From the IMG/VR virus record IMGVR_UViG_2563366824_000007: a stretch of 43,405 bases of DNA, one strand, 5' to 3'. Position numbers and translations under genes: made by a program. This document shows, one piece after another, positions 1 through 41,716 of this stretch. This DNA is from a virus. Taxonomy: Duplodnaviria > Heunggongvirae > Uroviricota > Caudoviricetes. Under the pieces are notes generated by a model that saw only the letters and a program-made list of their open reading frames with translations, did not search any database and had not been told where the DNA came from. Positions within the stretch are counted from its first letter, which is position 1, and every line of letters begins with the position of its first letter.

Positions 1-933
1 ATGGACAACGACAAAATTGATCAACACAGCGACGAAATTGAAGTTGAGAGCGAAGAAAAAGAGCGCGGCAAAAAAATAGAAATAGATGAAGACCGACTCC
101 CCTCCCGGGCGATGGCAATTCATGAGCATATCCGCCAGGATGGTGAAAAAGAGCTGGAACGCGACGCAATGGCACTACTGTGGTCAGCCATTGCGGCGGG
201 TCTGTCGATGGGCGCTTCATTACTGGCAAAAGGGATATTTCATGTAGAACTGGAAGGCGTGCCGGGCAGCTTCTTGCTGGAGAATCTCGGTTATACCTTT
301 GGTTTTATTATCGTCATTATGGCCCGCCAGCAATTATTTACCGAAAACACCGTGACTGCGGTACTACCCGTCATGCAAAAACCGACAATGAGCAACGTTG
401 GCTTACTTATGCGGTTATGGGGCGTCGTGCTGCTGGGTAATATTCTCGGGACAGGTATTGCGGCGTGGGCATTTGAATATATGCCAATCTTCAATGAAGA
501 AACTCGCGATGCATTTGTCAAAATCGGCATGGATGTGATGAAGAACACCCCCAGCGAGATGTTTGCCAACGCGATCATTTCCGGCTGGCTGATCGCCACT
601 ATGGTATGGATGTTTCCTGCAGCGGGTGCGGCAAAGATTGTGGTGATTATATTGATGACCTGGCTTATTGCACTGGGTGACACCACTCACATCGTTGTCG
701 GTTCTGTAGAAATCCTCTATCTGGTGTTTAACGGCACGCTGCACTGGAGCGATTTCATCTGGCCCTTCGCACTACCTACTTTAGCGGGGAACATCTGCGG
801 CGGCACCTTTATCTTCGCGTTAATGAGTCATGCACAGATTCGTAACGACATGAGCAACAAGCGCAAAGCAGAAGCACGCCAAAAAGCAGAACGTGCGGAA
901 AACATTAAGAAAAATGATAAAAACCCGGCATAA
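1..933 (+). CDS. yfdC: Inner-membrane protein YfdC (formate/nitrite transporter family)
   Basis: 310-aa ORF starting at window base 1; hydrophobic multi-TM sequence recognised as the gene that flanks argW in E. coli K-12-type chromosomes. Confidence 0.85.
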   Translation: MDNDKIDQHSDEIEVESEEKERGKKIEIDEDRLPSRAMAIHEHIRQDGEKELERDAMALLWSAIAAGLSMGASLLAKGIFHVELEGVPGSFLLENLGYTFGFIIVIMARQQLFTENTVTAVLPVMQKPTMSNVGLLMRLWGVVLLGNILGTGIAAWAFEYMPIFNEETRDAFVKIGMDVMKNTPSEMFANAIISGWLIATMVWMFPAAGAAKIVVIILMTWLIALGDTTHIVVGSVEILYLVFNGTLHWSDFIWPFALPTLAGNICGGTFIFALMSHAQIRNDMSNKRKAEARQKAERAENIKKNDKNPA

Positions 934-1008
934 ATGGCGAGGGTTTAAGCAATCGAGCGGCAGCGTACTTACCCCGCAGTCCATTAGCGGGTATACTCAT
1001 GCCGCATT

Positions 1009-1083
1009 GTCCTCTTAGTTAAATGGATATAACGAGCCCCTCCTAAGGGCTAATTGCAGGTTCGATTCCTGCAGGGGACACCA
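1009..1083 (+). tRNA. argW: tRNA-Arg (anticodon CCU)
   Basis: 75-nt sequence GTCCTCTTAGTTAAATGG...GGTTCGATTCCTGCAGGGGACACCA; CCT anticodon in the CTCCTAA loop, T-arm GGTTCGATTCC, encoded CCA end. Confidence 0.92.
1069..1083. repeat. attL core, 15-bp CTGCAGGGGACACCA (3' end of argW)
   Basis: Exact 15-mer repeated at 41702..41716; integrase gene lies immediately adjacent. Confidence 0.8.
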
Positions 1084-1244
1084 TTTATCAGTTCGCTCCC
1101 ATCCGTACCAGTCCGCAAAATCCCCTGAATATCAAGCCTTCCGTATATTCACGGTTCGTCATGGTTCGCGTCAGATCGTTGACAGCCGCACACCATGACG
1201 GGTAAAAAGTGGATAAAATAATTTTACCCACCGGATTTTTACCC

Positions 1245-2402
1245 ATGCTCACCGTTAAGCAGATTGAAGCAGCAAAGCCGAAAGAAAAACCATACCGCCT
1301 TCTCGATGGTAATGGCCTGTACCTTTATGTCCCTGTATCCGGGAAAAAGGTATGGCAGCTTCGCTACAAGATTGACGGTAAGGAGAAAATACTGACCGTC
1401 GGAAAATATCCGCTTATGACTTTGCAAGAGGCAAGGGATAAAGCATGGACTGCGAGGAAAGACATCTCGGTTGGCATCGATCCGGTAAAGGCGAAAAAGG
1501 CTTCGTCTAACAACAATTCCTTTAGTGCGATTTACAAGGAATGGTACGAGCATAAGAGGCAAGTCTGGTCAGCCGCCTATGCGACTGAACTTGCAAAAAT
1601 GTTTGATGACGACATTTTACCTATCATCGGCGGCCTTGAAATTCAGGATATTGAGCCGATGCAACTGCTGGAAGTAATCCGCAGATTTGAAGATCGCGGG
1701 GCAATGGAGCGAGCCAACAAAGCACGCAGAAGATGCGGCGAGGTTTTCCGTTACGCTATTGTCACCGGAAGGGCTAAATATAACCCGGCACCTGACCTTG
1801 CTGACGCCATGAAGGGATACCGCAAGAAGAACTTCCCGTTTTTACCTGCCGACCAGATCCCGGCATTCAACAAAGCACTTGCAACATTTTCAGGAAGTAT
1901 CGTATCTCTCATTGCGACCAAAGTTTTACGCTACACAGCACTAAGAACAAAAGAGCTTCGTTCCATGCAATGGAAGAACGTCGATTTTGAAAACAGGATT
2001 ATCACCATCGAGGCCAGTGTGATGAAGGGACGCAAGATTCATGTGGTTCCGATGTCGGACCAGGTTGTTGAACTTCTCACTACGCTAAGCTCCATCACTA
2101 AACCAGTATCAGAGTTTGTTTTTGCCGGGCGCAACGATAAGAAGAAGTCAATCTGCGAGAACGCGGTATTGCTTGTGATCAAACAAATCGGCTATGAGGG
2201 TCTGGAAAGCGGTCACGGATTCAGGCATGAATTCAGCACAATTATGAACGAGCACGAATGGCCTGCTGACGCTATTGAAGTGCAACTGGCACATGCCAAC
2301 GGCGGATCTGTGCGTGGTATTTACAACCATGCTCAGTATCTCGATAAGCGCAGAGAAATGATGCAGTGGTGGGCGGACTGGCTTGATGAAAAGGTGGAGT
2401 GA
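1245..2402 (+). CDS. intS: P4-type tyrosine integrase (IntS-like)
   Basis: N-terminal arm-binding region and C-terminal catalytic motifs (HGFRH ... Y); sits directly 3' of the tRNA; track ORF begins at GTG 1209, in-frame ATG at 1245 preferred. Confidence 0.9.
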   Translation: MLTVKQIEAAKPKEKPYRLLDGNGLYLYVPVSGKKVWQLRYKIDGKEKILTVGKYPLMTLQEARDKAWTARKDISVGIDPVKAKKASSNNNSFSAIYKEWYEHKRQVWSAAYATELAKMFDDDILPIIGGLEIQDIEPMQLLEVIRRFEDRGAMERANKARRRCGEVFRYAIVTGRAKYNPAPDLADAMKGYRKKNFPFLPADQIPAFNKALATFSGSIVSLIATKVLRYTALRTKELRSMQWKNVDFENRIITIEASVMKGRKIHVVPMSDQVVELLTTLSSITKPVSEFVFAGRNDKKKSICENAVLLVIKQIGYEGLESGHGFRHEFSTIMNEHEWPADAIEVQLAHANGGSVRGIYNHAQYLDKRREMMQWWADWLDEKVE

Positions 2403-2551
2403 CCCACCTTAAATACCGAAGAGCACAAAGCCTTGCAATCCAGTGCAAAGCTTTGCGTACCAGAGTTTTTCCTCATCAACTACCGCAAGTATCGATCGAT
2501 TGAGACTTGGATGATAGACTTCATGCCTTTCAGAACTCATTGATTAAATAA

Positions 2552-2914
2552 ATGTTAAATATATTTGCAAGGTACACCTCGATTGGTGTGCTGAACACAC
2601 TTATACACTGGGTGGTTTTTGGTGTATGTATCTATGCCGCGCATACCAATCAGGCTCTGGCAAACTTCGCAGGTTTCGTTGTGGCTGTGAGTTTTAGCTT
2701 CTTCGCGAATGCAAAATTCACATTCAAAGCATCAACTACAACGATGCGCTACATGTTATATGTCGGGTTCATGGGAACACTGAGTGCTACTGTTGGATGG
2801 GCTGCTGATAGATGCGCACTTCCTCCGATGATAACTCTTGTCACCTTCTCCGCCATCAGCCTGGTGTGCGGTTTCGTCTATTCAAAGTTCATTGTCTTTA
2901 GGGATGCGAAATGA
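2552..2914 (+). CDS. gtrA: GtrA-family bactoprenol-linked glucose translocase (flippase)
   Basis: 120-aa small 4-TM protein, first gene of a three-gene operon next to int; overlaps the next gene by 4 nt. Confidence 0.85.
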
Positions 2915-3828
2915 AAATTTCTTTAGTCGTTCCGGTCTTTAACGAAGAGGCCACGATACCTATTTTTTATAAAACCGTGCGCGAATTTGAAGGGCTTCAG
3001 CAGCATGAAGTCGAGATAGTCTTCATAAACGATGGCAGCAAAGACGCTACAGAATCAATTATCAACGAGCTTGCTGTTGCCGACCCGCTTGTGGTTTCGC
3101 TGTCGTTCACACGTAACTTCGGCAAAGAACCTGCCCTGTTCGCAGGTCTGGACCATGCTACCGGGGAGGCAATTATCCCGATTGACGTTGATCTGCAAGA
3201 CCCTATCGAAGTTATTCCTCACTTGATAGAGAAATGGCAGGCCGGTGCAGATATGGTTCTGGCTAAACGCTCTGACCGCTCCACTGACAGCAGGCTGAAG
3301 CGTAAATCTGCTGAGTGGTTCTATAAACTTCATAACAAAATCAGCACCCCTCAGATAGAAGAGAATGTTGGCGACTTCCGGCTCATGTCTCGCGAAGTAG
3401 TGGAAAACATTAAGCTCATGCCAGAACGAAACCTGTTTATGAAGGGTGTGCTGAGCTGGGTTGGTGGTCGAACCGAAGTCGTAGAATATGCGCGAGCAGA
3501 ACGCGTTGCAGGAAGCACAAAGTTCAATGGATGGAAGCTCTGGAACTTGGCGCTGGAAGGGATCACTAGCTTCTCAACATTCCCGCTGCGCATGTGGACC
3601 TATATTGGGTTATTTATTGCATGTATATCATTTACATACGGTTCATGGATGATAATTGATAAATTAATTTTTGGTAATAATGTACCTGGATACCCTTCAA
3701 TTCTTGTATCAATATTATTTCTTGGCGGCATCCAGTTAATTGGTATTGGAGTGCTAGGTGAGTACATAGGGCGTATCTACGTTGAGGTTAAGCAGCGTCC
3801 AAAGTATATATTAAAGGATAATAAATAA
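2911..3828 (+). CDS. gtrB: GtrB-family bactoprenol glucosyltransferase (GT2)
   Basis: 305 aa with GT2-like N-terminal region (VVPVFNEE ... DGSKD ... DVDLQDP) and two C-terminal TM helices; stop overlaps the gtrC ATG. Confidence 0.9.
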
Positions 3829-5285
3829 TGATTTTCAAAAAACAAATTAAATTTATATTCGTAATTTTATTATTTGCGTCATTATTTATGCTATATCACT
3901 TTGCCAGCTTAAACATATTCCCACCAAATACAGATGCGGCAACAGTGCTTTTGCTTGGTAAGGATATGTCAGAAGGTAATTACTTACTTCATGGATGGAT
4001 GCTATCCACGGTTCCTTTTTACTTTACAGAAGTATCTTTTTATGCGATCGCCTCTATATTATTTGGCTACAGCAGTGAGCTTGCATATATAATACCACCA
4101 GCGATGTATGCTACTGTGATATTTTTGATATACAGGCTGTCTACAAATAAATCATTAGCATTAGCGCTAATTATATTCTACTTTGTTTTTCCTGCTGACA
4201 TGGCTGTTACATCAATGCTTTCAGCGTGCATTCACATGGGTACATACATATTTATCATTGGATGCTTAATATTTACAGAAAAGTATATTAAAACAGAAAA
4301 AATATTATTTGTATACTTTTCAACCATACTGTCCTCTATGGCTATTTTTAGCGATAATATCTCAGTCTATATATACGTTGCACCGCTAACATTAGCAGCA
4401 ATGTTTTTGTTGCACAAGGAAAGAAAAAAGAAATACCTTATTATAATGGCTGGATTGTTTTCTTCATATTTAATTTCCAAGGCGATCGGTTTTTTGTTTT
4501 TAAACCTTGGAAGCTTTACATTGCCAGGACTAACAGATGTAAAGATTGTTGAGTATGACAATATTTTAGTTAATATAAATACCGCAGTAAGTGGAACTTT
4601 ATTGTTTTTTAATGCAGACATATTTGGTGAGCAGATAACACCATCACTGCATCTATTATCTAAAGCAATACGCTTTGCTGGTGTTGTTGCATTAATTTAC
4701 TTCACTTTCAGAAATCTTTTTAAAAACAGAAGCGTTATTGATATATGTTTGTCATTGTCTATTTTAATCATGACATCTGCTTATATTGGTAGTAACCTCC
4801 CAAGAAATATATGGACAATAAGATACCTTGTTCCCGTCTTCATTATGGCAGTAATTCTTTTGTCAAGATCTAAATTTAATAAAAAAAGCATTATTTTATT
4901 AATAGCTTTTTTGGGCATCATATCAGGAATTAAAACAATAAATATTAATGGCTCCACTGATAATAGATACAATCAGATATCATGTATTAGAGAAAAAATC
5001 AACGAGCACAAAGTGAATTATGGATATGCCCCTTTTGCATTTACCAACTCTGTTGGTGTGAATGGAGACATAAAAATAGCAAATATACTTTTTGATAACA
5101 ATGAAATTAAAAGAGACAACTGGCTTACAAATAGCGAATGGTATAACAAAGGAAATAATTTCTTTATTCTTGAGAATAAAGAACAATTGAATATTGTGAA
5201 GAAAATTTATGGTCAACCTGAAGATATTGAAAGTGTGTGTGATGTGATTTTTGTCAAATACAGAAACCACATTTACGTCAAATAA
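3828..5285 (+). CDS. GtrC-type serotype-specific O-antigen glucosyltransferase (specificity unknown)
   Basis: 485-aa polytopic membrane protein in the third position of the gtr operon; AT-rich relative to flanking genes; translationally coupled to gtrB. Confidence 0.65.
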   Translation: MIFKKQIKFIFVILLFASLFMLYHFASLNIFPPNTDAATVLLLGKDMSEGNYLLHGWMLSTVPFYFTEVSFYAIASILFGYSSELAYIIPPAMYATVIFLIYRLSTNKSLALALIIFYFVFPADMAVTSMLSACIHMGTYIFIIGCLIFTEKYIKTEKILFVYFSTILSSMAIFSDNISVYIYVAPLTLAAMFLLHKERKKKYLIIMAGLFSSYLISKAIGFLFLNLGSFTLPGLTDVKIVEYDNILVNINTAVSGTLLFFNADIFGEQITPSLHLLSKAIRFAGVVALIYFTFRNLFKNRSVIDICLSLSILIMTSAYIGSNLPRNIWTIRYLVPVFIMAVILLSRSKFNKKSIILLIAFLGIISGIKTININGSTDNRYNQISCIREKINEHKVNYGYAPFAFTNSVGVNGDIKIANILFDNNEIKRDNWLTNSEWYNKGNNFFILENKEQLNIVKKIYGQPEDIESVCDVIFVKYRNHIYVK

Positions 5286-5557
5286 TTATTTTACCCTGAA
5301 GGAGAAGGTTTATTAAAAGAATTTTCCTTCAGGGTAACATGTATAAGTACATAAATTCGCTACATTTTCGCCTAATAATTTGTTTTACTTCAATGATTAA
5401 TAAACGAAAATAAATTTAAAGTCTAAGTATTAGTACCGTAAGCTCTTTTCCTCGTAGATGTGGTTATGTTCCACCAAACAGGAAGGCCGAGCGTTGTATC
5501 GTAGTATTCAACTGGCACAATTGAAGAGACAGGCCTCTGCGCAGTTGTACCATATAA

Positions 5558-5707
5558 CAAAGATGTCAACGGAGAAATGCAGGCCGCAAACTGACTGATG
5601 ATGAAAAAACGCGGCTGAATGCGGTACTCGACTACATCGACGCAGTGACAGCAGTTGATGCTGACGCTGCGCCTGATATCAACTGGCCCGCTCCCCCGGT
5701 TGCGTAG
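5558..5707 (+). pseudogene. Tail fiber assembly (Tfa) 3' remnant, tfaS-like
   Basis: Open frame with no start translating to ...[40 protein letters not shown], which resembles Tfa C-termini; convergent with and overlapping the intact tfa 3' end. Confidence 0.5.
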
Positions 5708-6083
5708 GCCACTCTATTTCGGGTGCCGCTGAGGTATCAACACGGTTCAGCAGTACCCTGTATTTTTTCCACGCCAGCAGTAACGCCTGTTCATCGTCTG
5801 TCGCCATTTCCAAATCAACGGCATCCTGCAGCGGTGCTATTGTGTTATTTGCTACGGTCAGTAGTGCTGATTTCTGCAGCTCAGCCTCCGCAACTAACGC
5901 GTTGTGAGAGCGTTCTGGGGGAGGTGGCGCGGTAAATACTCCGTCTGAATATGACCAACCGATGCCAGCATCGCCGTTTAACGGAACTAAATTACCAGCC
6001 TCTGGTTTCCATTCAGAAATTCCGTCCCAGATAATGACATTAATAACAACGTTATTATCAACAACTGCATAGATATCATTCAT
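5679..6083 (-). CDS. Tail fiber assembly protein (Tfa family)
   Basis: 134 aa; C-terminus ...[25 protein letters not shown] typical of Tfa chaperones; directly downstream of the tail fiber gene. Confidence 0.8.
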
Positions 6084-7016
6084 TTACATGTACTCCCGAA
6101 TTACCAGCACGCCATTAGCTCCGTGCCCGCCACGTCCTGACGTGTGTGAATAGCTATTATCGTATGCACCCCCGCCGCCGGAGCCAGAGCAAACTCCAGG
6201 ATTACCGCTCAGTTGCCCAGCGCGGCCGCCGCCACCCCAATAGCTCGATGCCCCATTGCCTACTAATAGCGCCTGGCCCGCCTGTCCGTCTGAACCGTCT
6301 CCGCCTTGTTCTGTTTTATAACCGCCAGAGCCTGAGCCACCGCGCCCGCCAGCGGTATTTGTAGCGCCGCCCCATTGCCCACCCTGGCCGCCGAGCGCAG
6401 TTAATGTCATGAACGAACTATTACCGCCATTATTTCCAGACCCTGGCCCATTGGCACCACTACCACCGCTACCAATTGTCACTGTATAGGTCCCTGGCCC
6501 GGCATCGTTGTCTGTCGCATAAATAGTGGCAAAAACAGTACCTCCGGCTCCTCCGCCAGCCCCTGAAAATGTCTGATTTGCGTTCTCCGCGTTACATCCA
6601 CCGCCACCGCCGCCCGCCGCAGTCAGAATAACGTCAATTCGTTTTACGTCAGCTGGCCACGTATATGAACCCGACGATGAAAAAACGACAGTTTTGCTGT
6701 AACGCCCCGAGCCATCTCCCAAACCAAGGTTTTCGAGAGCCGTTTTCACCGTGCCATCCGATTTGATATCGCCAAACGGATTCTTGCGGCTTAACAGCAG
6801 CGCGCGAAGCGCGGTAAGTAGCTGGTCGTGCCGCCCCTTATCCAAGCTGGCACCGGACGCCTCCACAACGCTGCAAAGCTCCTCCTGCAACATGTCAAAG
6901 TAGTCATCATCCAGATCGGTGGCAGGCGTGCAGGTCTGGGGGTTACCACGGGTAAAACCGTTCTTACCCGCGCCGAACTTATCCTTCTGCGCGGTTTTCG
7001 TGTCTATACGATGCAT
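6084..7016 (-). CDS. Tail fiber protein (glycine-rich)
   Basis: 310 aa with extensive GGxGG / GSGG repeats; located between a baseplate gene and tfa. Confidence 0.7.
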
Positions 7017-7019
7017 GGA

Positions 7020-7604
7020 TTACTCCGGATATTTAAAAATTACGTAGGTATGCGACGGGCAGAGTTTGTTAAGCACACACTCGACAACGGTGTCGCCCCA
7101 GATACGCAGTGCGGAATCACAGGGATCGCCACATGTCATCCAGGTGGTGTTGGTGGCAGCTGGCATGTTGACCTGCCAGTAATACCGCCATTCCGGCGCA
7201 TTCACCGCGTCAGTACAGGCCGATGAGCAGGTGAACGTGCTTTTGTCGTATCGCGTGATGTTGGCATCTGGTCTGCCCAGGGCAGCAAGCTGTGCAAGAT
7301 AAAAATTCTCGTTGATGCTGCCCGCCAGGTTAACCTTCGCATCCAGCCGTTGCTGACGCTGACGAAGGGTCTGTGTCCCTGCGGGAATACATTCATCCGG
7401 CAGACCGCACAGACGCTCCCAGCGGTTTATCAGTTCAGTGGTGGTGCGCGGATCCAGCTCCCGCATCAGGGCATCCGCACGCTGATGAACACGGGTTAAT
7501 GACGGTGCCGCACCGGCAATCGCCGGATCGCTGGCTGACCACGCCGGACCGGGGGGCAACAGTGCCGACAACAGACGGATGTAATCATCGTTTGTCACGT
7601 CCAT
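7020..7604 (-). CDS. Mu gp48-like tail/baseplate protein (DUF2313-like)
   Basis: 194-aa ORF downstream of the baseplate J-like gene in conserved Mu-like order. Confidence 0.65.
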
Positions 7605-8653
7605 GAAATCGTCCCCAGAACCGCCAGTTCATTTTTTGCAATGGAGATATTGTCTGCCGGTGCAAGCAACTGATGGCTGTATTCCCCGTTCGCACCGGAA
7701 ATCGCCTCACTGATACGCGATACCTTCAGTTCTCCCTGCGGATAACCATCACGCAGCAGGAACGAACGCAACTCCGCGGTGATGGCAGCCCGTATTTCCG
7801 GTGTGTCCGGCGTCACGCGGATATGAAAATCCACCGTATGTGCCACCGGCCTGAACACATACAAATCAGAGCCTGCCACCGGGGCCAGTGGCTCGATATG
7901 TTGTCTTGCCGCCGTTTCCGTTGATTCTTCCGGAATGGGATTAATCAGGTCACTGCTGGCAATCATCACACCGACAGTTCCCGTTCCCATCCAGTGACGG
8001 TATGTCCATGCGCGGGTAATGCCGGGCACTTCTTTAGCCCAGACGACATAGTCCCCGTCAGCCCCGCCCTGAGGCGTCCAGTAATACCGCTCAATGACGC
8101 GGGCGCGCCACGTTTCCAGCTCTTCAGTATCAAATCCACCTGTCAGGGTATCTGCCACGCCGGAAGACGGCAGACCATTCACCGGCGTGACCAGGATTAA
8201 TGACGTACCGTCGTCAGCGTTACCGACCGCGCCTGCACTTGAGCAGGCGATCGGCACGCGCAGGACACCACCGGAGCTGGTTGCATCGGCAGTTGCCGTG
8301 TACTGAACCAGGTCATCGCGCTGAATCACGCTCCCGGCAGTCACCTTCAGGCCATCGCTGACACCTTCCCAGCGCATATACCCGCTGGCAGCCGTGGCCC
8401 CCTTGCGCGGACACCGTTTCATCGCAGCATGTCGCGCCAGCCAGGACTCATCGCACAGGTCAGGCAGCATATTCATTGCCAGATAATCGATGTACCCGTA
8501 AACCGTATGCAGCGCCGCCGCATACACCTTTGCCCGCACGTCTTCATCCATGCGCCGGAGCGTGTCGCTGACGTCCAGCCTGGCGAATAAATCGTTACGG
8601 AGCATACTGATATTTTCTGCCAGCGTCGGGCGCTGAAATTCACTGTCCGCCAT
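7595..8653 (-). CDS. Baseplate J-like protein (Mu gp47-like)
   Basis: 352 aa; position and size in the Mu-like baseplate block; overlaps neighbouring genes. Confidence 0.75.
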
Positions 8654-9068
8654 GCGTTATCGCACTCCACAGATCATCAAAAGAAATCATTACCGGTCCG
8701 TCACGACGCCAGAGAGTGATACTGTTACCCAGTTCATTAATCCCGGTGCGGCGGATATCCAGATCAATACGGGACACCACGCCGTCATCAATCATCCATT
8801 GCAGGCATTCGCGGATATACCCCTTTACCGTCTGCACCAGCTGATTGGTCAGTTTGCTGCGCTGAAGCAGCCACAGCCGGGAGCCGTAACGGTCATTCTG
8901 TACCGCAGGCCAGGTATCCCCCCACCATCCCATCGGGACGTCGGCGTTGTCATCAGGCTCCGCCCGCCGCCAGGTAAACAGGGAAATCACCACGGCGCGG
9001 GTCAGCGGATCCAGCGGTGCGCTGGCGCAGGTGCGTTTACCGTTCACCGTCAGCCACAGTTCCATCAT
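8640..9068 (-). CDS. Mu gp46-like baseplate protein
   Basis: 142 aa; synteny between the gp45-like and gp47-like genes. Confidence 0.65.
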   Translation of the reverse strand: MMELWLTVNGKRTCASAPLDPLTRAVVISLFTWRRAEPDDNADVPMGWWGDTWPAVQNDRYGSRLWLLQRSKLTNQLVQTVKGYIRECLQWMIDDGVVSRIDLDIRRTGINELGNSITLWRRDGPVMISFDDLWSAITHGGQ

Positions 9069-9613
9069 GCCTCCATCGCTTTATCAGGTTTGTCGGTGTT
9101 ACTGCCCTGACCGTTCTCTCTGTGACGATGCCCGTTATAGGCAAGCCGCATCGCTGACATGGTGGTGCCGCCGGAGTCGCACAGGTCTTTCACCTGTCCT
9201 GTCACTTCCAGGTCCATTTCAAAACGTGCTTTAGGTGAATTGCGAAACGTGATCGTTTTACCTGCACCGTCCACCACGATCCCCTCCCGGGTCAGCGTCA
9301 CGGACTGCCCCTGATCGTCATAGACAGCCACCTCACCCGTCTGCAGCCCTTTCAGGCGGTAGCGCCGGTCCGACACCGTAACAACCACCGCATGAGAACG
9401 GTCGCCATCCGGAAACAACACCACCGCTTCCGCACCGCTGTTTGCCCTTGAGGTAAAACCGTAGGGTTCAAGATGTTCAACCCCTGCTTTGGGTTCACCG
9501 GCAATCAGGGACACATCCACGGTCTGACATTTCGTGGCGGCACTGATGCTTTTCACCACGGCCCGCCCAATCAGGCCGAGGAGTTGTCGCTGCATGGCTT
9601 CAATCGTCCTCAT
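9065..9613 (-). CDS. Baseplate assembly protein V / spike (Mu gp45-like)
   Basis: 182 aa; synteny, translationally coupled. Confidence 0.7.
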   Translation of the reverse strand: MRTIEAMQRQLLGLIGRAVVKSISAATKCQTVDVSLIAGEPKAGVEHLEPYGFTSRANSGAEAVVLFPDGDRSHAVVVTVSDRRYRLKGLQTGEVAVYDDQGQSVTLTREGIVVDGAGKTITFRNSPKARFEMDLEVTGQVKDLCDSGGTTMSAMRLAYNGHRHRENGQGSNTDKPDKAMEA

Positions 9614-10692
9614 CAGAACGGGTCCTCCTGTACTCTGGCTTTTTTCTTTTTCCGCGCGCTGGGGGCTTCGGGTTCAGGCAGATAAGCATCAGGTGGGCCG
9701 ACACGGATTTCCGTCAGGGTGCCGTTCTGGTCCTGAGTAAACGTGACTTCCGAAACAAGCAGTTCGGTATTGTCGAAACCACAGACCGGATCAAAGACAA
9801 TCACCCGCTGGTTGGGCTGCCACAGCGTACCGTTACCCTGTCGCCAACCCTGCACCACATAGGTGGTTTCATCCGTCCGCGCCGCCCGTTGTCGGGCTTC
9901 AAAGTCCGCACGGGCAATACAGCCTGCCCCCGTAGCCTGCCCTGTCTGCCTGATATACATCGGACGGTAACGGGCAATAAATGCGTCCTCTGTGCGGGCC
10001 CGCAGCGCGGTGGTGGTGGCCTCACCGAAATCATCGTCGTTTCCGGCACGCTGCCCCGCCACCTGGTAAACAGAAAACCGCTCCCGGATACTCTTCTCCG
10101 TATCACAGGAAAGGATGTTTTCCCCAAGTACCAGCGCGGTATGTGCCCGCGTTGAGCCAATACCACCAATCACCAGCCTGCCGTGCGGGTCGTCATAAGC
10201 CAGCGCCTGCTGCTGACCGAGTATTTTGTTGATCACCTCAATCACCGTTTCACCGTGATCAGGCTGGACATCCGGAATAACACCCGACGGCGCATCGCTG
10301 TTCACCACCTCAATGCCGAAAGGCGCAGCAAGCGCCTGCGCAATCTGTACCAGCGATCGTCCGTTAAACTGTGTCGGTTCGGCTGCACAGTCAATCAGGT
10401 CAGCAGTCAGACTACGTCCGGCAATACCGGTGCTGACCGAACGGGCATCGTAACGAACGGGGGTCGCCTCCACCCAGCCGGTGATCACCAGCTCATCACC
10501 AATCAGCACTTCCACTTTTGAACCATTTTTAATGCGCGGCTGAAGCGTGGTGATACCCTCATCTCCCGGCCACTGGCGGGTGATCTCCACACTGAAATCC
10601 CGCGCCAGCCGTTCAATACCGGCACCGATGCGCACCGATGTCCAGCCATTCCACTCCCGGCCATTTACCCGTAGCGTGACATTGTCGTTCAT
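9613..10692 (-). CDS. Baseplate hub / tail protein (Mu gp44 P-like, gpD-like)
   Basis: 359 aa; synteny downstream of the DNA circulation gene. Confidence 0.7.
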   Translation of the reverse strand: MNDNVTLRVNGREWNGWTSVRIGAGIERLARDFSVEITRQWPGDEGITTLQPRIKNGSKVEVLIGDELVITGWVEATPVRYDARSVSTGIAGRSLTADLIDCAAEPTQFNGRSLVQIAQALAAPFGIEVVNSDAPSGVIPDVQPDHGETVIEVINKILGQQQALAYDDPHGRLVIGGIGSTRAHTALVLGENILSCDTEKSIRERFSVYQVAGQRAGNDDDFGEATTTALRARTEDAFIARYRPMYIRQTGQATGAGCIARADFEARQRAARTDETTYVVQGWRQGNGTLWQPNQRVIVFDPVCGFDNTELLVSEVTFTQDQNGTLTEIRVGPPDAYLPEPEAPSARKKKKARVQEDPF

Positions 10693-12017
10693 TGCACTGG
10701 CACCTTCAGAGGGATCACCGGCACAAAGCCGGGATGCGTAATGGCATTACGCCGGATAATGTCCGCGTCACGCGCCGCGTTATCAAACCAGGTCGCCGCC
10801 AGCACCAGTGCGGGTAAAACCTCATCCGGTGTGCGCTGAATGATCCGTGCAGACTGTTCAAGGCGCGTGTTGATATCCGCATTCAGATCTGCTTTCACCC
10901 GGCGCAGCGCCAGAAACAGCGCATCGCTGGTTGTACGGGACAACTCCTTATCAATTGCCGTATTCAGTATGTCGCGAATGTCAGTCAGTTCTTCCCACGT
11001 CGGCAGGTCAACCGTGTTTTTCACCGCCGGTGCATTGTTCAGTGCCGAATGCGTGACGGAAGGCCAGCCACTGCTCTGCGCGGGTGTTGTTGTCTGCCCC
11101 ACTGCGGAATTCTGCATCACCGCGAAAGTTGTTGGCGCAGGCAATCGGGTAACGGCATACGCCGCTTCGCTGATTGCGGTCGTACGAAGAGTGCTGGCAA
11201 CCACGTTACGCTGCTGCGTCGCCGTGGCGGTGGTTTTACTGTCCGTTTTCCAGACGCCGCGCGGTTGCAGATCGCTGCCGAGGCTGACACCGGAAAGCGT
11301 TTTGATCATGGTGACCAGGTCGCTGGCGTTACCATAAAGGCGTTTCCCGGTACGCCACATTTTCTGCACCTGCTCAACGAAATTTTTGCCTGACGATGGC
11401 GGCGGCAGAAGTACCGAGATATCCCCCTGCAACAGCCTGGCGGCATCCGATACGGCAGAATCCACCACTTTCATCGCATCAGAAACATACCCCAGCATTA
11501 TGCTGGCATTACCGATAACGTCGTTCTGCACGAAATCCGCCACACCATCGATACTGAAACCGCTGAAGCTGTCACTGATGCAGTCATCCAGTGCAGAACA
11601 GGATGACATCAGCGTCTGCGCCGTCGCCGCACCTGATGTGGGGTAAGAGAGTTCTCCTGCTTCGACAAACTTCAGGTCAAAGCGGACAATACGCCCTTCA
11701 CTCTTCGATGTGCTGACCCGAACCTCTCCGTCAACACAGACTTTCAGCTCACCGTAAGTCGGATGGACAAGCGTGCCGGGACCGGGTTTATTCAGCGCGT
11801 CAATCAGGCGATCGCGCTGGTCAAAGCAGTCATCTCCCACCACATAAGCCGTGATGGACGGGCGGAAAGTGATTTTCCCCAGGTCTTCGGTATAGGGTTT
11901 GTCGCGGTTCGGGTATTCGTGCGTTTCCACACGACGACCGGTTCCCGCACTTTCTTCTTCAACCTTAAACGGCACGCCGCGAAATGACGCGCCCTGAAGT
12001 CTGTCTTTCCACGTCAT
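10689..12017 (-). CDS. DNA circulation protein (Mu gp43 N-like)
   Basis: Track ORF starts at 12059, but its first 14 codons translate a terminator hairpin; in-frame ATG at 12017 (MTWKDRLQGASF...) preferred. Confidence 0.75.
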   Translation of the reverse strand: MTWKDRLQGASFRGVPFKVEEESAGTGRRVETHEYPNRDKPYTEDLGKITFRPSITAYVVGDDCFDQRDRLIDALNKPGPGTLVHPTYGELKVCVDGEVRVSTSKSEGRIVRFDLKFVEAGELSYPTSGAATAQTLMSSCSALDDCISDSFSGFSIDGVADFVQNDVIGNASIMLGYVSDAMKVVDSAVSDAARLLQGDISVLLPPPSSGKNFVEQVQKMWRTGKRLYGNASDLVTMIKTLSGVSLGSDLQPRGVWKTDSKTTATATQQRNVVASTLRTTAISEAAYAVTRLPAPTTFAVMQNSAVGQTTTPAQSSGWPSVTHSALNNAPAVKNTVDLPTWEELTDIRDILNTAIDKELSRTTSDALFLALRRVKADLNADINTRLEQSARIIQRTPDEVLPALVLAATWFDNAARDADIIRRNAITHPGFVPVIPLKVPVQ

Positions 12018-12030
12018 ATAAACTCCGGAT

Positions 12031-12053
12031 ATAAAAAAACCCGCCGAAGCGGG
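12031..12053 (-). terminator. Rho-independent terminator after the lipoprotein moron
   Basis: Minus-strand hairpin CCCGC-ttcg-GCGGG followed by a 7-T run, 18 nt downstream of the lipoprotein stop. Confidence 0.65.
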
Positions 12054-12070
12054 TTTCATTAAATTATCGC

Positions 12071-12748
12071 TTATCTAAAGTTACTTATTACCCGATACCT
12101 TATGCTTTGGTTACTCGCATCAAGTACTTCGAATTTAGCCCCTTTATAGCCAATTGTTTTAGACTCCGCGAGATCATACTCAACATCGTTGTTGAAGGCC
12201 GGGCGTGCTGTATTCGATGAAAATTCACGATATCCAATGTTGATTTTGTTTCCGACCCTTCCGTTGTAAAGCAGAGCTTGCTGGAAAGATGAATCACCAC
12301 TGATATTCAGAGTAACCTTTTCGATAGGCATGTTAGTTTCACAGTTGGTAACACCGAAAACTGTTATTACACATAAGGCATTCTTTTTCTTTTCTACCAT
12401 GATGCCCTGCCACATATCGGCAAGGGCTGCCTTTTCCACATTGGCTGAATCAGCACCGTTTGTGAGAAAGTAATAATCAGCCTTGTTATCCTCACCAACC
12501 TTTTTCAGCATCCCCGGAGTGATCGTATACGCCCAGGAAATTCTCGCAGGAGCATTAACCTTCAGACCTTCAAACCTCTGTGACACCCCCTGCTTAATCA
12601 TTGAATCACCGACATAAGCTGTATTAATGCTTCCTACAGGAGGTTCACTATAATTTTCTGTTTTTGGTAAATAATTGTACTTCGGAGAGGTACATCCCCC
12701 GAGTAAAAGAGCCATGCCGACAACTGAATAAATTGTTAAGACTTTCAT
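12071..12748 (-). CDS. Lipoprotein of unknown function (moron in tail module)
   Basis: Start at ATG 12748 gives MKVLTIYSVVGMALLLGGC..., a signal peptide with lipobox LLGGC; AT-rich relative to neighbouring tail genes; has its own terminator. Confidence 0.7.
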   Translation of the reverse strand: MKVLTIYSVVGMALLLGGCTSPKYNYLPKTENYSEPPVGSINTAYVGDSMIKQGVSQRFEGLKVNAPARISWAYTITPGMLKKVGEDNKADYYFLTNGADSANVEKAALADMWQGIMVEKKKNALCVITVFGVTNCETNMPIEKVTLNISGDSSFQQALLYNGRVGNKINIGYREFSSNTARPAFNNDVEYDLAESKTIGYKGAKFEVLDASNQSIRYRVISNFR

Positions 12749-12829
12749 ATCCCTATTCCCATCATTAAAGTATCGGACTAATCCTACCAAGAACCTGCTA
12801 AACGACAAAACCCGTGTTTAAGCGGGGTA

Positions 12830-14671
12830 TCAGCCCCCCATACCAAATCGGGTGTAGCCAACGTCGTGATTCACGTCGATACCGCTGGATCGCGTTTCCA
12901 TAACCCGCATACCCGGAGGCGAATTCACAAAAGAGACCTTGATCTCACCGTCAACTTTTGGCGCAGAAGCTTTGTTAATCATGAAGGGATTCGGGCCTGT
13001 GGCATCGGAGGCGTTGTTTGCCTGAGCCGGATCCATGGCCGGATAAGGTGTGTATCCCCGCGCCGGGAATCCCGTCCCATAAGCATCATAAGCACCCGCG
13101 CCCCACTGCGCAGAGTTAATGGCATCGACCGTGTCACCGGAACTGTCGGTAAACCACTCAATAATTGGCTTCAGCTTGTCCCACATATCCTGAAACCACT
13201 TAACAACCGGTCCCCAGTTATTGATTACCATCCCCAGCGGCGACCAGGCAAAAACCTTCTTCAGAAGTTCCCAGCCAGCCTCAAAATAAGGACCAATGGT
13301 TTCCCAGAGCTTCTTGAAATAAGGTCCGACAACATCCCAGTTAGTGATAATTAATCCCGCAGCCAGGGCTATCGCCGTCGCAATCATTCCAATCGGCGTC
13401 ATCGACATGATCCTGCTGACAATACTGATGGCCCCGCCAACGCCCATCAATCCCAGTTTCAGAATCGCAAGACCGGCAGCAAGCCCGACGACGCCGCGAA
13501 TAACCCGGGGATTTTCATCCGCAAACTTCGTGAATTTTTCCCCTAACTCCCCCAGCCATTGCGTGATATTTTTGGCGTCACCAGAAAATGCGCCGCCAAT
13601 AGCCGCAAGGCCGTTAGTTGCGGTCCCCGTCATTGCCTCCCACAGGTTGGACAGCGTACCAAGCTGGGCCTGAACACGTTTATTCAGGCTGGCCTGTTTA
13701 TTCATCTTCTGCTGGATCTGATCGTAGCCATCCTTTCCTTTATCGATTAGTGCATTGACCACCTGAAGGGTTTCGGCATCATCACCAAATATTGCCTTAA
13801 GTACACCTGTTCGCTTAACGTCGGTCAGTTTTCGCAGCTTTGCCAGTTGCCTGAACATGTTATCAAGACCGCCAAAACTTCCTTTGCCGTCAGTAAAATC
13901 GAGCTGTACCCCGAGTTTCTGGCGGGCCATGACTTTATTGACGTCCCTGATTTTCTTAACGCTTAATCCGGACTGGATAACTTTTCGCAGGGCATTACCT
14001 GCCGACTCCCCGTTCATCCCCATCTGATCCATCATGACGCTGATGGGGGCAAGGCTCTGTGCAGCCTGAAGACCCTCCTTGTTCACCATCTTCAGAACAG
14101 AACTGGTTTTAGTGAAGAAGGACAACATGTTGGTATCGTCAACGCCCAGATAAAACGCCTTCTGGATAGTGTCGAACAGCCCCATCATGTCTTCTGACGC
14201 CGTTCCGGTAGCATCCTGCATCTTTGCAGCAAACTCAGCAGCCGCTTCCGGTGTTTTTTTCAGTTGTACCGCAAGATAAGCTGTCGCTTTACCCACACCA
14301 CCCAGAATGTTTTCTGCCGGGATCCCCTGACGCACCAGCATCTGCATCATGTTCTGGAAATCAGCCGTTGTACCGGGTAGCTGGTTACCCAGACCAATAG
14401 CCAGTTTATTGATGTCCTGAAAGCTCTTTCCAACCTCGCCGTTCGCATCCATCATGGCGACTTTCAGCCCGGTGGCGGCGTTTTCCTGATCGGCATAAGA
14501 TTTCAGGGAAAGCGTCAGACCCGCAGCCAGTCCGCCACCAAGCGCCAGCCCACCCTGTGACGCTTCTTCCGCCTGGCGTTTAAATCCCCGGATTTTCTTT
14601 TGCATTTTCGACAGCGCGGGAGAAAGCCTGTCGACACCGGTGATCAACGCCTTAAGCTCAAATTCAGCCAT
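12830..14671 (-). CDS. Tail tape measure protein
   Basis: 613 aa, Ala/Gly-rich with helical N-terminus and hydrophobic central segment; downstream of the chaperone frameshift pair. Confidence 0.85.
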   Translation of the reverse strand: MAEFELKALITGVDRLSPALSKMQKKIRGFKRQAEEASQGGLALGGGLAAGLTLSLKSYADQENAATGLKVAMMDANGEVGKSFQDINKLAIGLGNQLPGTTADFQNMMQMLVRQGIPAENILGGVGKATAYLAVQLKKTPEAAAEFAAKMQDATGTASEDMMGLFDTIQKAFYLGVDDTNMLSFFTKTSSVLKMVNKEGLQAAQSLAPISVMMDQMGMNGESAGNALRKVIQSGLSVKKIRDVNKVMARQKLGVQLDFTDGKGSFGGLDNMFRQLAKLRKLTDVKRTGVLKAIFGDDAETLQVVNALIDKGKDGYDQIQQKMNKQASLNKRVQAQLGTLSNLWEAMTGTATNGLAAIGGAFSGDAKNITQWLGELGEKFTKFADENPRVIRGVVGLAAGLAILKLGLMGVGGAISIVSRIMSMTPIGMIATAIALAAGLIITNWDVVGPYFKKLWETIGPYFEAGWELLKKVFAWSPLGMVINNWGPVVKWFQDMWDKLKPIIEWFTDSSGDTVDAINSAQWGAGAYDAYGTGFPARGYTPYPAMDPAQANNASDATGPNPFMINKASAPKVDGEIKVSFVNSPPGMRVMETRSSGIDVNHDVGYTRFGMGG

Positions 14672-17096: not shown

Positions 17097-18913
<1,817 letters not shown>

Positions 18914-28500: not shown

Positions 28501-29232
28501 TTACATCATGTCTTTTTCTAAAAAAAATCTTGATGAATATTGATGGGGAGGAACACCAAAATATCTTCTGAAAACACTCACAAAATATGACGTGTTTTCA
28601 TAACCGCATATCTCAGCAACTTTTCCAACAGAATATAAATTGTAACTTAATAACCTTTCCGCCATCACCATTCGCTCTTCAAGAATTAACTTACTAAATG
28701 ATAAGCCTTCGTGCTTTAATTTTCTTTTTAACAGACTTTCACTCAGATACAGTCTTGAAGATATATCACAAAGTCTCCATGCTGCAGATATATCCGTGTG
28801 AATAATAGCCTTAACTTTACTTCCTAAACTATTAAGACATCCAAATAAAAAACTTTGCACTATTTTCTCTGAAGATAAGATAGCAAGACATGCAAGTGAT
28901 ATTTGATTTCTAACAAAATCCACAGTTCTGCCATCACAATTCAAGCATGCAATCAAGTTCTTTAACAATGAAAAATCTTCACATTCCACCATCAAGTATG
29001 CCGGATAAAACCTTCTTACAGAAAAAGGTGAGAGTGTGTTGCTTTTAAAGAAATCATTAACTGTTTTCTCTTCAACATCTACGATCATTACATGATCTAT
29101 ATTTGATGAAAAAAAATCTTTTAAATTGTAATCAATGAGAACAGCACTTCCTTTTTTAAACAAAATATCTTCTTTACCAATTCGGACATCAAACGAGTTC
29201 AACACCAAAATGATAGAACATATGTATGGCAT
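28501..29232 (-). CDS. AraC/XylS-family transcriptional regulator
   Basis: C-terminal AraC-type HTH (...GKVAEICGYENTSYFVSVFRRYFGVPP...); very AT-rich; ATG at 29232 with AGGTGG ribosome-binding site preferred over track GTG 29241. Confidence 0.8.
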   Translation of the reverse strand: MPYICSIILVLNSFDVRIGKEDILFKKGSAVLIDYNLKDFFSSNIDHVMIVDVEEKTVNDFFKSNTLSPFSVRRFYPAYLMVECEDFSLLKNLIACLNCDGRTVDFVRNQISLACLAILSSEKIVQSFLFGCLNSLGSKVKAIIHTDISAAWRLCDISSRLYLSESLLKRKLKHEGLSFSKLILEERMVMAERLLSYNLYSVGKVAEICGYENTSYFVSVFRRYFGVPPHQYSSRFFLEKDMM

Positions 29233-29583
29233 ATTATCCACCTGATATCATTGGGGTTACACCAGGTAAGTATAGGTGGAAAATCAATATTCGCCAGTTC
29301 AACAATAAGGAAAATTTCATTGCATCACAAGTATAAAATTATGTATTTAACTCACAAAGACAAATTATTAAACCAATCTGTTATATTATATATAGCTGCG
29401 TGGAATCATAATATTATATATTTTGACTGGCATGTTTACCAACTTTAAGTTGCATCTCAATTGTTTCTTCAGCGTAAACAGAGTTTTTATACAAACTGAC
29501 ACTCTGGGTATCATAGTGTAGTTTTTACGATTGTAAATATCCTGCATGCAGGAACTCATCCTTTTGGATGATATCGCATACAA

Positions 29584-30543
29584 TTAATTTACCATCAGTC
29601 TTAGAGCCAGTTCGTCCGGATAGGGATCGAAGTAATTCTGTGTAAGCAAGTAATCATTAGGATACTCACCCAGATAATGCTTCAGCAGAGTCAACGGCGC
29701 AAGAAGAGGTAATGTGCCAGAACGATAGTTAAGTATAACCTCGCTCAACTCTTTACGCTGGCGTGTACTTAAGTAGTTACTAAAATACCCCTGTATATGC
29801 ATCAGCACATTCGTGTGATTTTTACGTGATGCAGGTTTTCTGAGAATCGCCATCAGCTTATCACGATACACCTCAAAGTATGATTCAAGGTCCGCCCACT
29901 CGTGTATTGCAGCCACAAATGGTCCCATATCTTTATAGCCTGCCTGACTATGCGCCAACAACTGAAGCTTATAACGACTATGAAAAGCTAATAACTCTCT
30001 TCTTGATAATTTCTCCTTGTAAAGGTGATTGAGCTCATGCAAAGCAAAAACTCTTTCAACAAAATTCTCACGAAGCACTGGATCATGTAATCGCCCATCC
30101 TCTTCAACCGGTAGCCAGGAAAACTTTTCCATCAAAGTACTCGTAAATAGTCCCACTCCATCTTTACGACCTCGATTACCATTTTCATCATAGACACGCA
30201 CGCGCTCCATGCCACAGCTGGGAGATTTAGCACAAACCACAACCCCCGATACATCCTTTAATTTGTCCATATAAGAACGACTAAACTCTGTCATTCTCTC
30301 TGTCACATCCTCATTCTGGTCGTGGCTGAAACACATCCGTATATTTCCTTGCGTCGAGCGCACAAGACGTAGAGCAGGACGCGGAACTGGCAGCCCTATA
30401 GCCATTTCCGGACATACTGGTCTGAATGTTACCCATTCCACTAATTTGTCCATTAAAAAGTCAGCTCTTTTGTGACCACCATCAAAACGAACAGCAGAAC
30501 CGGCCAAACAACCGCTGATTCCAATCACAGGTTTTTTTATCAT
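29584..30543 (-). CDS. DUF523 (TudS-like) - DUF1722 (YbgA-like) fusion protein
   Basis: 319 aa; N-terminal Cys-containing motifs (GISGCL ... CPE ... CAKSPSCG) consistent with a TudS-type Fe-S domain, YbgA-like C-terminal half; GGGGGAG ribosome-binding site. Confidence 0.65.
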   Translation of the reverse strand: MIKKPVIGISGCLAGSAVRFDGGHKRADFLMDKLVEWVTFRPVCPEMAIGLPVPRPALRLVRSTQGNIRMCFSHDQNEDVTERMTEFSRSYMDKLKDVSGVVVCAKSPSCGMERVRVYDENGNRGRKDGVGLFTSTLMEKFSWLPVEEDGRLHDPVLRENFVERVFALHELNHLYKEKLSRRELLAFHSRYKLQLLAHSQAGYKDMGPFVAAIHEWADLESYFEVYRDKLMAILRKPASRKNHTNVLMHIQGYFSNYLSTRQRKELSEVILNYRSGTLPLLAPLTLLKHYLGEYPNDYLLTQNYFDPYPDELALRLMVN

Positions 30544-30735
30544 ATTCTCCCCCTTGACTAATTCATTAACACATAAACTGTGTAGTGCACGGAATAAATT
30601 GCCTTTCTGGCGTCATCACTGACAATTTTTCTGTTATGGACTATTCCTAATATAGTATGAAAGTTCTTTAAGTGATCGGTCGTAATCATCTATCTTTCAT
30701 ACTTACTCTCAACTATCAAAAGTACAGGATTTATT

Positions 30736-31260
30736 ATGAAGTTATGGCCTGTGTTGACTGGCATTGCACTCTCTTTCACTCTTATAGCATGTAAGGCCCC
30801 GACACCACCTAAAGGTGTGCAGCCGATTACAAATTTTGACGCCAACCGCTACCTCGGAAAATGGTATGAAATAGCTCGCCTCGAGAACCGGTTCGAACGT
30901 GATCTGGAACAGGTCAGCGCTACTTATGGAAAACGGAACGACGGAGGGATTCGTGTACTTAACCGTGGATACGATCCAACGAAAAATAAATGGAGCGAGA
31001 GCGAAGGTAAAGCATACTTTACTGGAGATACTAAAACTGCAGCATTGAAGGTTTCGTTTTTTGGCCCCTTCTATGGTGGCTATAATGTAATCAAACTGGA
31101 TGATGAGTATAAGTATGCTCTTGTCAGTGGTCCGAACAGAGAATACCTATGGATTCTGGCAAGGACCCCAACTATTCCAGATAAAGTAAAAGCAGACTAT
31201 GTGCGAACCGCTCAAAAGTTGGGATTCAATGTCAATGAATTATTATGGGTTAAACAATAA
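30736..31260 (+). CDS. blc: Outer-membrane lipocalin Blc paralog
   Basis: 174 aa; lipoprotein signal (LIAC) and lipocalin motifs (NFDANRYLGKWYEIARLENRFER ... FFGPFYGGYNVI ... YLWILAR) closely resembling E. coli Blc. Confidence 0.85.
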   Translation: MKLWPVLTGIALSFTLIACKAPTPPKGVQPITNFDANRYLGKWYEIARLENRFERDLEQVSATYGKRNDGGIRVLNRGYDPTKNKWSESEGKAYFTGDTKTAALKVSFFGPFYGGYNVIKLDDEYKYALVSGPNREYLWILARTPTIPDKVKADYVRTAQKLGFNVNELLWVKQ

Positions 31261-41392: not shown

Positions 41393-41408
41393 TTGCAGGT
41401 TCGATTCC
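41393..41408 (+). repeat. Orphan 16-bp copy of the argW T-arm segment (TTGCAGGTTCGATTCC)
   Basis: Exact match to tRNA positions 1045..1060, located about 300 bp inside attR just upstream of torI. Confidence 0.6.
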
Positions 41409-41427: not shown

Positions 41428-41628
41428 ATGCAACACGAACTACAGCCTGATTCACTGGTTGATTTGAAATTCATCATGGCTGATACTGGCTTTGGTAAAA
41501 CCTTCATCTATGACCGGATTAAGTCCGGCGACCTGCCAAAAGCCAAAGTTATCCACGGGCGAGCAAGATGGTTATATCGTGACCATTGTGAATTCAAAAA
41601 TAAGCTCTTAAGCCGCGCCAATGGGTAA
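41428..41628 (+). CDS. torI: Excisionase / recombination directionality factor TorI
   Basis: 66 aa MQHELQPDSLVDLKFIMADTGFGKTFIYDRIKSGDLPKAKVIHGRARWLYRDHCEFKNKLLSRANG (winged-helix Xis-like); GGAG ribosome-binding site; adjacent to attR. Confidence 0.85.
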   Translation: MQHELQPDSLVDLKFIMADTGFGKTFIYDRIKSGDLPKAKVIHGRARWLYRDHCEFKNKLLSRANG

Positions 41629-41701: not shown

Positions 41702-41716
41702 CTGCAGGGGACACCA
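41702..41716. repeat. attR core, 15-bp CTGCAGGGGACACCA
   Basis: Exact direct repeat of the argW 3' end (1069..1083); flanking bases differ. Confidence 0.8.

Follow-up and report, generated by a model that had tools for sequence, protein, structure and literature searches.

A gtrABC cassette of an SfII/SfV-like argW prophage and its putative GtrI-related glucosyltransferase, a gtrC allele of the Escherichia coli O17/O44/O73/O77/O106 serogroup complex

Introduction

The Escherichia coli serogroups O17, O44, O73, O77 and O106 share the O-antigen backbone ->6)Man(a1-2)Man(a1-2)Man(b1-3)GlcNAc(a1-> (Man, mannose; GlcNAc, N-acetylglucosamine) and differ only in glucose branches, which come from prophage gtr genes (PMC7685785, PMC10304059). 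Among these genes only the O44 set has been identified, as gtrA-gtrB-wbbG at the ybhB-ybhC site (PMC7685785, PMC10304059). The five serogroups also share one O-antigen cluster, are lumped as 'O77g' by sequence serotyping (PMC13188871, PMC13094856), and as of 2026 were still indistinguishable by sequence (PMC13188871). The present analysis concerns a 43,405-nucleotide stretch of DNA, the IMG/VR record IMGVR_UViG_2563366824_000007 (Caudoviricetes), which is called the window in its whole length. Near its left end gtrA and gtrB are followed by a gene for a 485-residue protein, and this third gene, the gtrC of the window, is the main subject.

The region is very likely the serotype-conversion module of an SfII/SfV-like argW phage, in which a GtrI-related glucosyltransferase of the GT-C fold acts on a Man3-GlcNAc O-antigen. 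By sequence comparison, the gtrC of the window is one of at least four apparently interchangeable alleles in the serogroup complex. Limited to that complex in the hosts checked, it probably determines one of the glucose branches that tell the serogroups apart.

The gtrABC operon

The cassette is a real gtrABC operon in its canonical place, beside the integrase and attachment (att) site of an SfII/SfV-like prophage. Within a single operon read from one strand, gtrA comes first, gtrB second and the gene of a predicted polytopic membrane transferase third. The operon adjoins a temperate-phage integrase and att site, and a low-GC (guanine plus cytosine), allele-specific gtrC lies between conserved flanks. 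The original prediction had placed a 485-residue open reading frame (ORF) behind conserved gtrA and gtrB, in the usual position of the serotype-specific glucosyltransferase. All three frames were recovered on the plus strand directly in this order beside the integrase and att site, and the first two were identified by their Pfam and PHROG matches. GtrA matches PF04138 (E 2e-13) and PHROG 2224 'GtrA-like O-antigen conversion' (E 3e-69), and is 77-97% identical to the GtrA proteins of P22, the Sf phages, HF4s and K-12, with 97% to K-12 YfdG and 87% to SfI/SfV GtrA. GtrB matches PF00535 (E 4e-30) and PHROG 841 (E 1e-165), and is 86-89% identical to GtrB of P22, SfI, SfII, SfIV, SfV, HF4s and K-12.

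The three genes are tightly packed. The gtrA stop and gtrB start share ATGA at 2911-2914. One base, at 3828, belongs both to the gtrB stop and to the gtrC start (TAATG at 3826-3830), with AAGGA 9 nt upstream, in keeping with the translational coupling proposed for the third frame. The GC content of gtrC is 30.9%, with 29% at third codon positions, compared with 45% for gtrAB and 50% for the whole window. At the composition of gtrC, the chance probability of a 485-codon open frame is ~1e-17, and homologues of the full length exist.

The predicted description of gtrC as divergent and low in GC was accurate as a measurement, but it does not set the gene apart. The reference set comprised GtrI, GtrII, GtrIV, GtrV, P22 GtrC, HF4s GtrC and K-12 YfdI. 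All seven reference genes have a GC content of 28-38% and most lack detectable similarity to each other, so that 'divergent' and 'AT-rich' hold for gtrC genes as a class, and low GC was rejected as a mark of something unusual. Near-identity to a typed GtrC was not found. BLASTP against the reference set detected GtrI alone, with 24% identity over 431 residues and an E value of 2.5e-5. A profile of the family of the window protein, described below, aligned with the full length of SfI GtrI in hhalign at 99.3% probability (E 7e-21, 450 columns), while its probabilities against GtrII and P22 GtrC were 11% and 5%. The window protein did not match PF14264 (Glucos_trans_II), a model that the GtrII, P22 GtrC and K12a GtrC controls do match.

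Family and fold of the third protein

From its family and its structural model, the product of the third gene is predicted to be a membrane glycosyltransferase of the GT-C fold related to GtrI. The protein had no Pfam hit at E<=1 and no NCBIfam match, and its accession WP_001544764 is not mentioned in the literature searched. A tblastn search of 50,697 phage records gave no matches, a Foldseek comparison with viral models yielded nothing beyond weak hits to unnamed proteins, and at E<=10 the family profile had no match among PDB sequences. A word-indexed search returned three clusters only, namely the protein itself, an 86% identical homologue from Salmonella enterica subsp. arizonae and a 52% identical homologue from Enterobacter hormaechei, both directly 3' of gtrA-gtrB. 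An exhaustive HMMER search with these three sequences recovered 1238 cluster representatives at E<=1e-3, of which 497 also passed E<=1e-10, and 92 aligned family members contained no relevant Pfam match. This GtrI-like family of >1200 cluster representatives is without a Pfam model, and in the absence of a Pfam or NCBIfam model annotation pipelines label such genes hypothetical. PHROG 13688 (201 positions, function not known) matches residues 285-485 only, at E 7e-99. As this model covers only the C-terminal 200 residues, some prophage annotations seem to carry a truncated or split gtrC.

Residues D36 and N51 are invariant across the 92 homologues, and G50, L54, W57, H136, D176, P186, R332 and Y333 are at least 90% conserved. 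The family-invariant residues are all present in the window protein. An AlphaFold model built on the 92-homologue alignment reached a predicted local distance difference test (pLDDT) value of 95.1 and a predicted template modelling score of 0.93; the three-sequence alignment gave a pLDDT of 39 and was unusable. The model has a multi-helix membrane domain with GT-C architecture, and the conserved acidic residue D36 follows helix 1 (2-30) and precedes the second membrane helix. The model predicts ~11 transmembrane helices and a domain at the C-terminus, in agreement with the earlier expectation of a polytopic membrane protein. D36 would stand in the first extracytoplasmic loop, and the other conserved polar residues would likewise be periplasmic, as would a domain of residues ~370-485. 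This orientation is suggested by a Lys-rich N-terminus and by the Lys/Arg-rich loops 196-203, 295-302 and 346-354. A polyprenyl-phosphate-linked sugar would serve as donor, as suggested by the adjacent GtrB with its 86-89% identity to bactoprenol glucosyltransferases.

Some genes called gtrC encode acetyltransferases, as in Salmonella family II, and a single member of the 92 distant homologues matches Acyl_transf_3, though weakly. An acyltransferase or another type of O-antigen modifier is nevertheless extremely unlikely for the window, where the protein itself has no Acyl_transf_3 match, the confident model shows the GT-C fold, and the homology is to the glucosyltransferase GtrI.

Allelic series at gtrC

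The clearest view of the cassette comes from the O17:H18 reference strain K12a. Its prophage also lies at argW and carries the gtrC WP_000561375.1, a PF14264 protein with a GC content of 0.31. In a blastn comparison with K12a, window positions 1-3846 aligned at 98.4% identity and 5425-12021 at 97.8%, with nothing between. The interval 3847-5424 is the sole stretch in the left 12 kb that is non-homologous to the prophage of the O17 reference strain. Prophage and integration site in this strain match those of the window while its gtrC is unrelated, so only 3847-5424 has been swapped. The K12a gene has the same slot and low GC as the window gtrC, within a 97-98% identical prophage, but no detectable sequence relationship to it. 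Against MZ1211 and M7424 the boundaries are alike, with homology over 2422-3826/3846 and then from 5435/5481 onward. For every allele, the alignment with the window is lost where gtrB meets gtrC and is regained 140-200 bp past the gtrC stop.

Three other alleles were placed in the complex. The O17-type allele of K12a occurs in 35 genomes. The O44-type allele, WP_001673698.1, occurs in 12 genomes including strain 042, an O44:H18 strain. Next to ybhB, it encodes a full-length homologue 31% identical to the window protein (E 3e-76; hhalign against the family profile, E 4e-75), which is the best match to any allele tied to a serotype. The 042/MZ1211 allele resembles that of the window in the gtrAB genes upstream (98%), in the tail-fibre-assembly flank downstream (98%) and in host O-antigen genotype, but it stands at the ybhB/lambda att site and the window allele at argW. 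By its location and by strain 042, rather than by published sequence, WP_001673698.1 would be the published WbbG. The M7424-type allele, WP_000174193.1 (M7424 locus L021 4776-6242), is also next to ybhB, belongs to the GtrI family and encodes a protein 32% identical to the window protein. It was found in 25 genomes, including the Australian strains of the stx2d lineage of sequence type 69 (ST69) and the French outbreak isolate CNREC_004-43. The window gtrC was rejected as the O17 determinant and as the O44 determinant, because the O17 reference strain and strain 042 each carry a different allele.

The way in which these alleles occur together bears on the branch that the window gtrC may encode. 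Neither the O17-type nor the O44-type allele was present in any of the 14 hosts of the window allele (0 of 14 for each). The M7424-type allele co-occurs with it in 8 of the 14, and with the O17-type allele in strain 2018-05-2CC. In the remaining 6 of the 14 the window allele is alone at megablast sensitivity. As a sub-case of O-antigen glucosylation, the window gtrC could be the transferase of an already known branch, one of two in O73 or O106, and this is a serious possibility that falls short of being probable. O73 and O106 carry two glucose branches each, with transferases not assigned (PMC10304059). The second gtr cluster in 8 of the 14 hosts is what a doubly branched antigen needs, and the lack of co-occurrence with the O17-type and O44-type alleles also fits. 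On the other side, 6 of the 14 hosts have the window allele alone, and in WP8-S18-ESBL-07 a single gtrAB place was seen. Moreover, no antiserum of the five agglutinated any of the 18 isolates from the French outbreak (PMC13094856); as CNREC_004-43 has the M7424-type allele, the alleles do not simply map onto the five named serogroups. It is conceivable, and proposed here tentatively, that the glucose branch has the position or linkage of none of the five, so that the window allele, alone or with the M7424-type allele, would mark one or two unrecognised members of the complex.

Host genomes and their O-antigen

The window gtrC is present in 14 of 5426 complete E. coli genomes at 98.1-100% identity. 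Besides G4/9, the other 13 genomes come from humans, poultry, cattle and wastewater and have an intact frame. The G4/9 copy has indels (1443/1458 nt aligned), and the assembly of this strain has many frameshifts. No phenotypic serotype of G4/9 was found in the Symbioflor literature.

The O17/O44/O73/O77/O106 wzx/wzy genes were present in 13 of 13 hosts checked, against a background of 94 of 5426 genomes with this O-antigen cluster (1.7%). The genes were first noted in one host; the check then covered 9 of the 14 hosts, among the 60 listed of the 94 matches, and strains 135, G4/9, T-HYM1 and CE0007a directly; HYM1, the sister of T-HYM1, was left out. Although the genomes are not independent, 13 of 13 against 1.7% is far beyond chance.

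Proposed function

The cassette would act in three steps. At the cytoplasmic side of the inner membrane GtrB would make undecaprenyl-phosphate-glucose, GtrA would bring it to the periplasmic side, and the 485-residue GtrC would attach the glucose to one specific sugar of the O-antigen under assembly. The acceptor would most probably be the Man-Man-Man-GlcNAc backbone of O17/O44/O73/O77/O106, because every checked host carries that O-antigen genotype. The window gtrC would then add a glucose branch unlike those of O17 and O44 and change the serotype, and it may alter the phage receptor too, if the Shigella and Salmonella systems are a guide. We infer the donor sugar, acceptor and linkage of the gtrC product, as well as its expression and phenotype.

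Several points weigh against this proposal. The role of the allele is predicted from sequence and model, and the membrane topology is read from model helices and charge distribution. The 14 genomes do not count as independent events, since the host association is in part clonal. Expression of the GtrC families II and IV of Salmonella left the lipopolysaccharide (LPS) visibly unchanged (PMC3688519), which means that a gtrC in the right place does not prove an O-antigen effect. No sigma-70-like promoter was found by a promoter scan in the 149-nt intS-gtrA spacer (2403-2551). Finally, an insertion sequence in a tail gene shows decay of the prophage, though gtr is untouched.

The last two points, an IS3-family element that interrupts the tail-terminator gene and the lack of a promoter-like site upstream of gtrA, together with the indels in the G4/9 copy, would suit a silent or inactive gtrC carried as cargo of a decaying prophage, with no phenotype in its present hosts. 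However, 13 other genomes keep an intact frame with 98-100% conservation, the family-invariant residues are retained, and such a long open frame at 31% GC would not survive without selection. Silent cargo is accordingly judged quite improbable.

An active GT-C transferase could also use an acceptor other than the O-antigen, such as enterobacterial common antigen, LPS core or capsule. The fold does not reveal the acceptor, the best structural match, ArnT, modifies lipid A, and some Salmonella GtrC families, as above, show no O-antigen shift (PMC3688519). The restriction of 13 of 13 hosts to one O-antigen genotype is hard to explain with a universal glycan, and O-antigen is the target of the closest relatives with a linked function, namely GtrI and the allele of strain 042 (O44); such an acceptor is very unlikely. 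Glucosylation of the Man3-GlcNAc O-antigen remains the preferred reading.

P22-like phase variation of the gtr operon was considered and rejected. Paired Dam/OxyR sites make P22 and Salmonella gtr operons phase-variable (PMC2909390), whereas the intS-gtrA spacer has one GATC only (2494), so paired sites are not evident there. Directly 3' of the gtrC stop and within the swapped cassette is a stem-loop (5287-5341) with no U tract on either strand, which was not called by a terminator scan. It may end the transcript or stabilise it.

The prophage and its other features

The 15-mer CTGCAGGGGACACCA, the last 15 nt of argW, stands at both ends of the prophage, which therefore spans ~1069-41716 (~40.6 kb) and lies wholly inside the window (Table 1). 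A search for attR with 23 nt gave no match, and the 15-nt core did. Across its structural module the prophage shares 97% identity with the serotype-converting phages SfII, SfI, SfIV and SfV of Shigella flexneri. The RefSeq name at the identical locus of the integrase gene is 'prophage integrase IntS', and in the ORF listing its frame is extensible to a GTG at 1209.

Table 1. Positions of the operon, the swapped cassette and the prophage ends in the window
Feature	Position	Strand	Evidence or remark
yfdC	1-933	+	left end of window
argW, tRNA-Arg (CCT)	1009..1083	+	ARAGORN
attL core, last 15 nt of argW CTGCAGGGGACACCA	1069-1083	+	same 15-mer recurs once
intS, tyrosine recombinase, prophage integrase	1245..2402	+	Pfam Phage_integrase, Phage_int_M, Arm-DNA-bind_3
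gtrA, small membrane protein, proposed flippase for undecaprenyl-phosphate-glucose	2552..2914	+	PF04138, PHROG 2224
gtrB, GT2 bactoprenol glucosyltransferase (UDP-glucose to undecaprenyl phosphate)	2911..3828	+	PF00535, PHROG 841/34335
gtrC allele, 485-residue putative serotype-specific glucosyltransferase, GT-C fold, GtrI family	3828..5285	+	RefSeq WP_001544764.1 'hypothetical protein'
Swapped cassette	3847..5424	+	gtrC from ~codon 7 plus ~140 bp downstream, 30.7% GC
Strong stem-loop	5287..5341	+	RNAfold dG (free energy) -24.3 kcal/mol, z -6.2, 0/200 shuffles as stable
torI-like excisionase gene	41428..41628	+	translation; right end of prophage, just before attR core
attR core, repeat of argW 3' end	41702..41716	+	exact 15-mer match

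The IS3-family element occupies 17334-18591, with a transposase ORF at 17537-18583 and inverted ends TGTAGTGG. It sits inside the tail-terminator gene and is missing from the K12a prophage, which elsewhere is 97-98% identical. With this insertion the prophage is probably unable to make tails. A second segment non-homologous to the K12a prophage, at 12022-12840, holds a 245-residue ORF (12071-12808, minus strand) with no Pfam match, and its K12a counterpart is a gene for an OB-fold protein. Cargo-like genes lie at 28501-31260 and encode an AraC-type regulator (28501-29241), a 2-thiouracil desulfurase/DUF1722 protein (29584-30543) and a lipocalin (30736-31260).

At the right end, the product of the excisionase gene presumably resembles TorI of KplE1/CPS-53. 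Just upstream of this gene, ~300 bp before the attR core, is a 16-nt fragment of the argW T-arm, TTGCAGGTTCGATTCC (41393-41408), which may be a trace of an older integration. Just outside attR, a gene for a LacY-family sugar/proton symporter (42158-43405, 415 residues, PF01306, E 7e-193) marks the right chromosomal flank.

Relevance to serotyping

Both the widespread ST69 lineage and the strain of the 2025 French outbreak of haemolytic uraemic syndrome belong to the O77g group. Four gtrC alleles have now been placed in the complex with their co-occurrence, namely those of the O17 reference strain, of 042 (O44), of M7424 and the outbreak, and of the window. They are concrete markers to split the O77g group from genome data, and the window gtrC is a candidate for marking a variant of the complex that is unassigned or has no name. 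If the branch is a new one, gtrC typing would split a group that wzx/wzy genotyping and, for some strains, antisera leave unresolved. If it is a known branch of O73 or O106, only the assignment of gene to structure would be new and not the modification. In either case the cassette is a genuine but ordinary serotype-converting cassette, and the mechanism of Gtr systems as currently understood is unchanged.

Comparison with known systems

SfI GtrI, the glucosyltransferase of S. flexneri serotype 1, belongs to the same family as the window protein and has the same operon position. The structural genes of phage SfI are 97% identical to those of the window prophage, and SfI GtrI and its relatives, like the window protein, fall below the threshold of every Pfam model. 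The acceptor of GtrI is the Rha-Rha-Rha-GlcNAc backbone of S. flexneri (Rha, rhamnose), in contrast to the Man3-GlcNAc backbone in the hosts described here, and at 24% identity the specificity of GtrI is not transferable.

Among solved structures, ArnT (PDB 5f15) is the best match, and PglB/STT3, ALG and PMT belong to the same GT-C fold superfamily. Compared with these enzymes, the window protein has ~10% identity, ~11 helices instead of 13 and a smaller periplasmic domain.

The CPS-53/KplE1 element of K-12 (yfdC-argW-intS-yfdG-yfdH-yfdI) shares with the window the insertion site, the integrase family and gtrAB (GtrA 97%, GtrB 86%). In contrast, K-12 YfdI is of the GtrIV family (40% identical to GtrIV) and is unrelated to the window protein. 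Moreover, the K-12 element is a short remnant, whereas the window prophage extends over ~40.6 kb.

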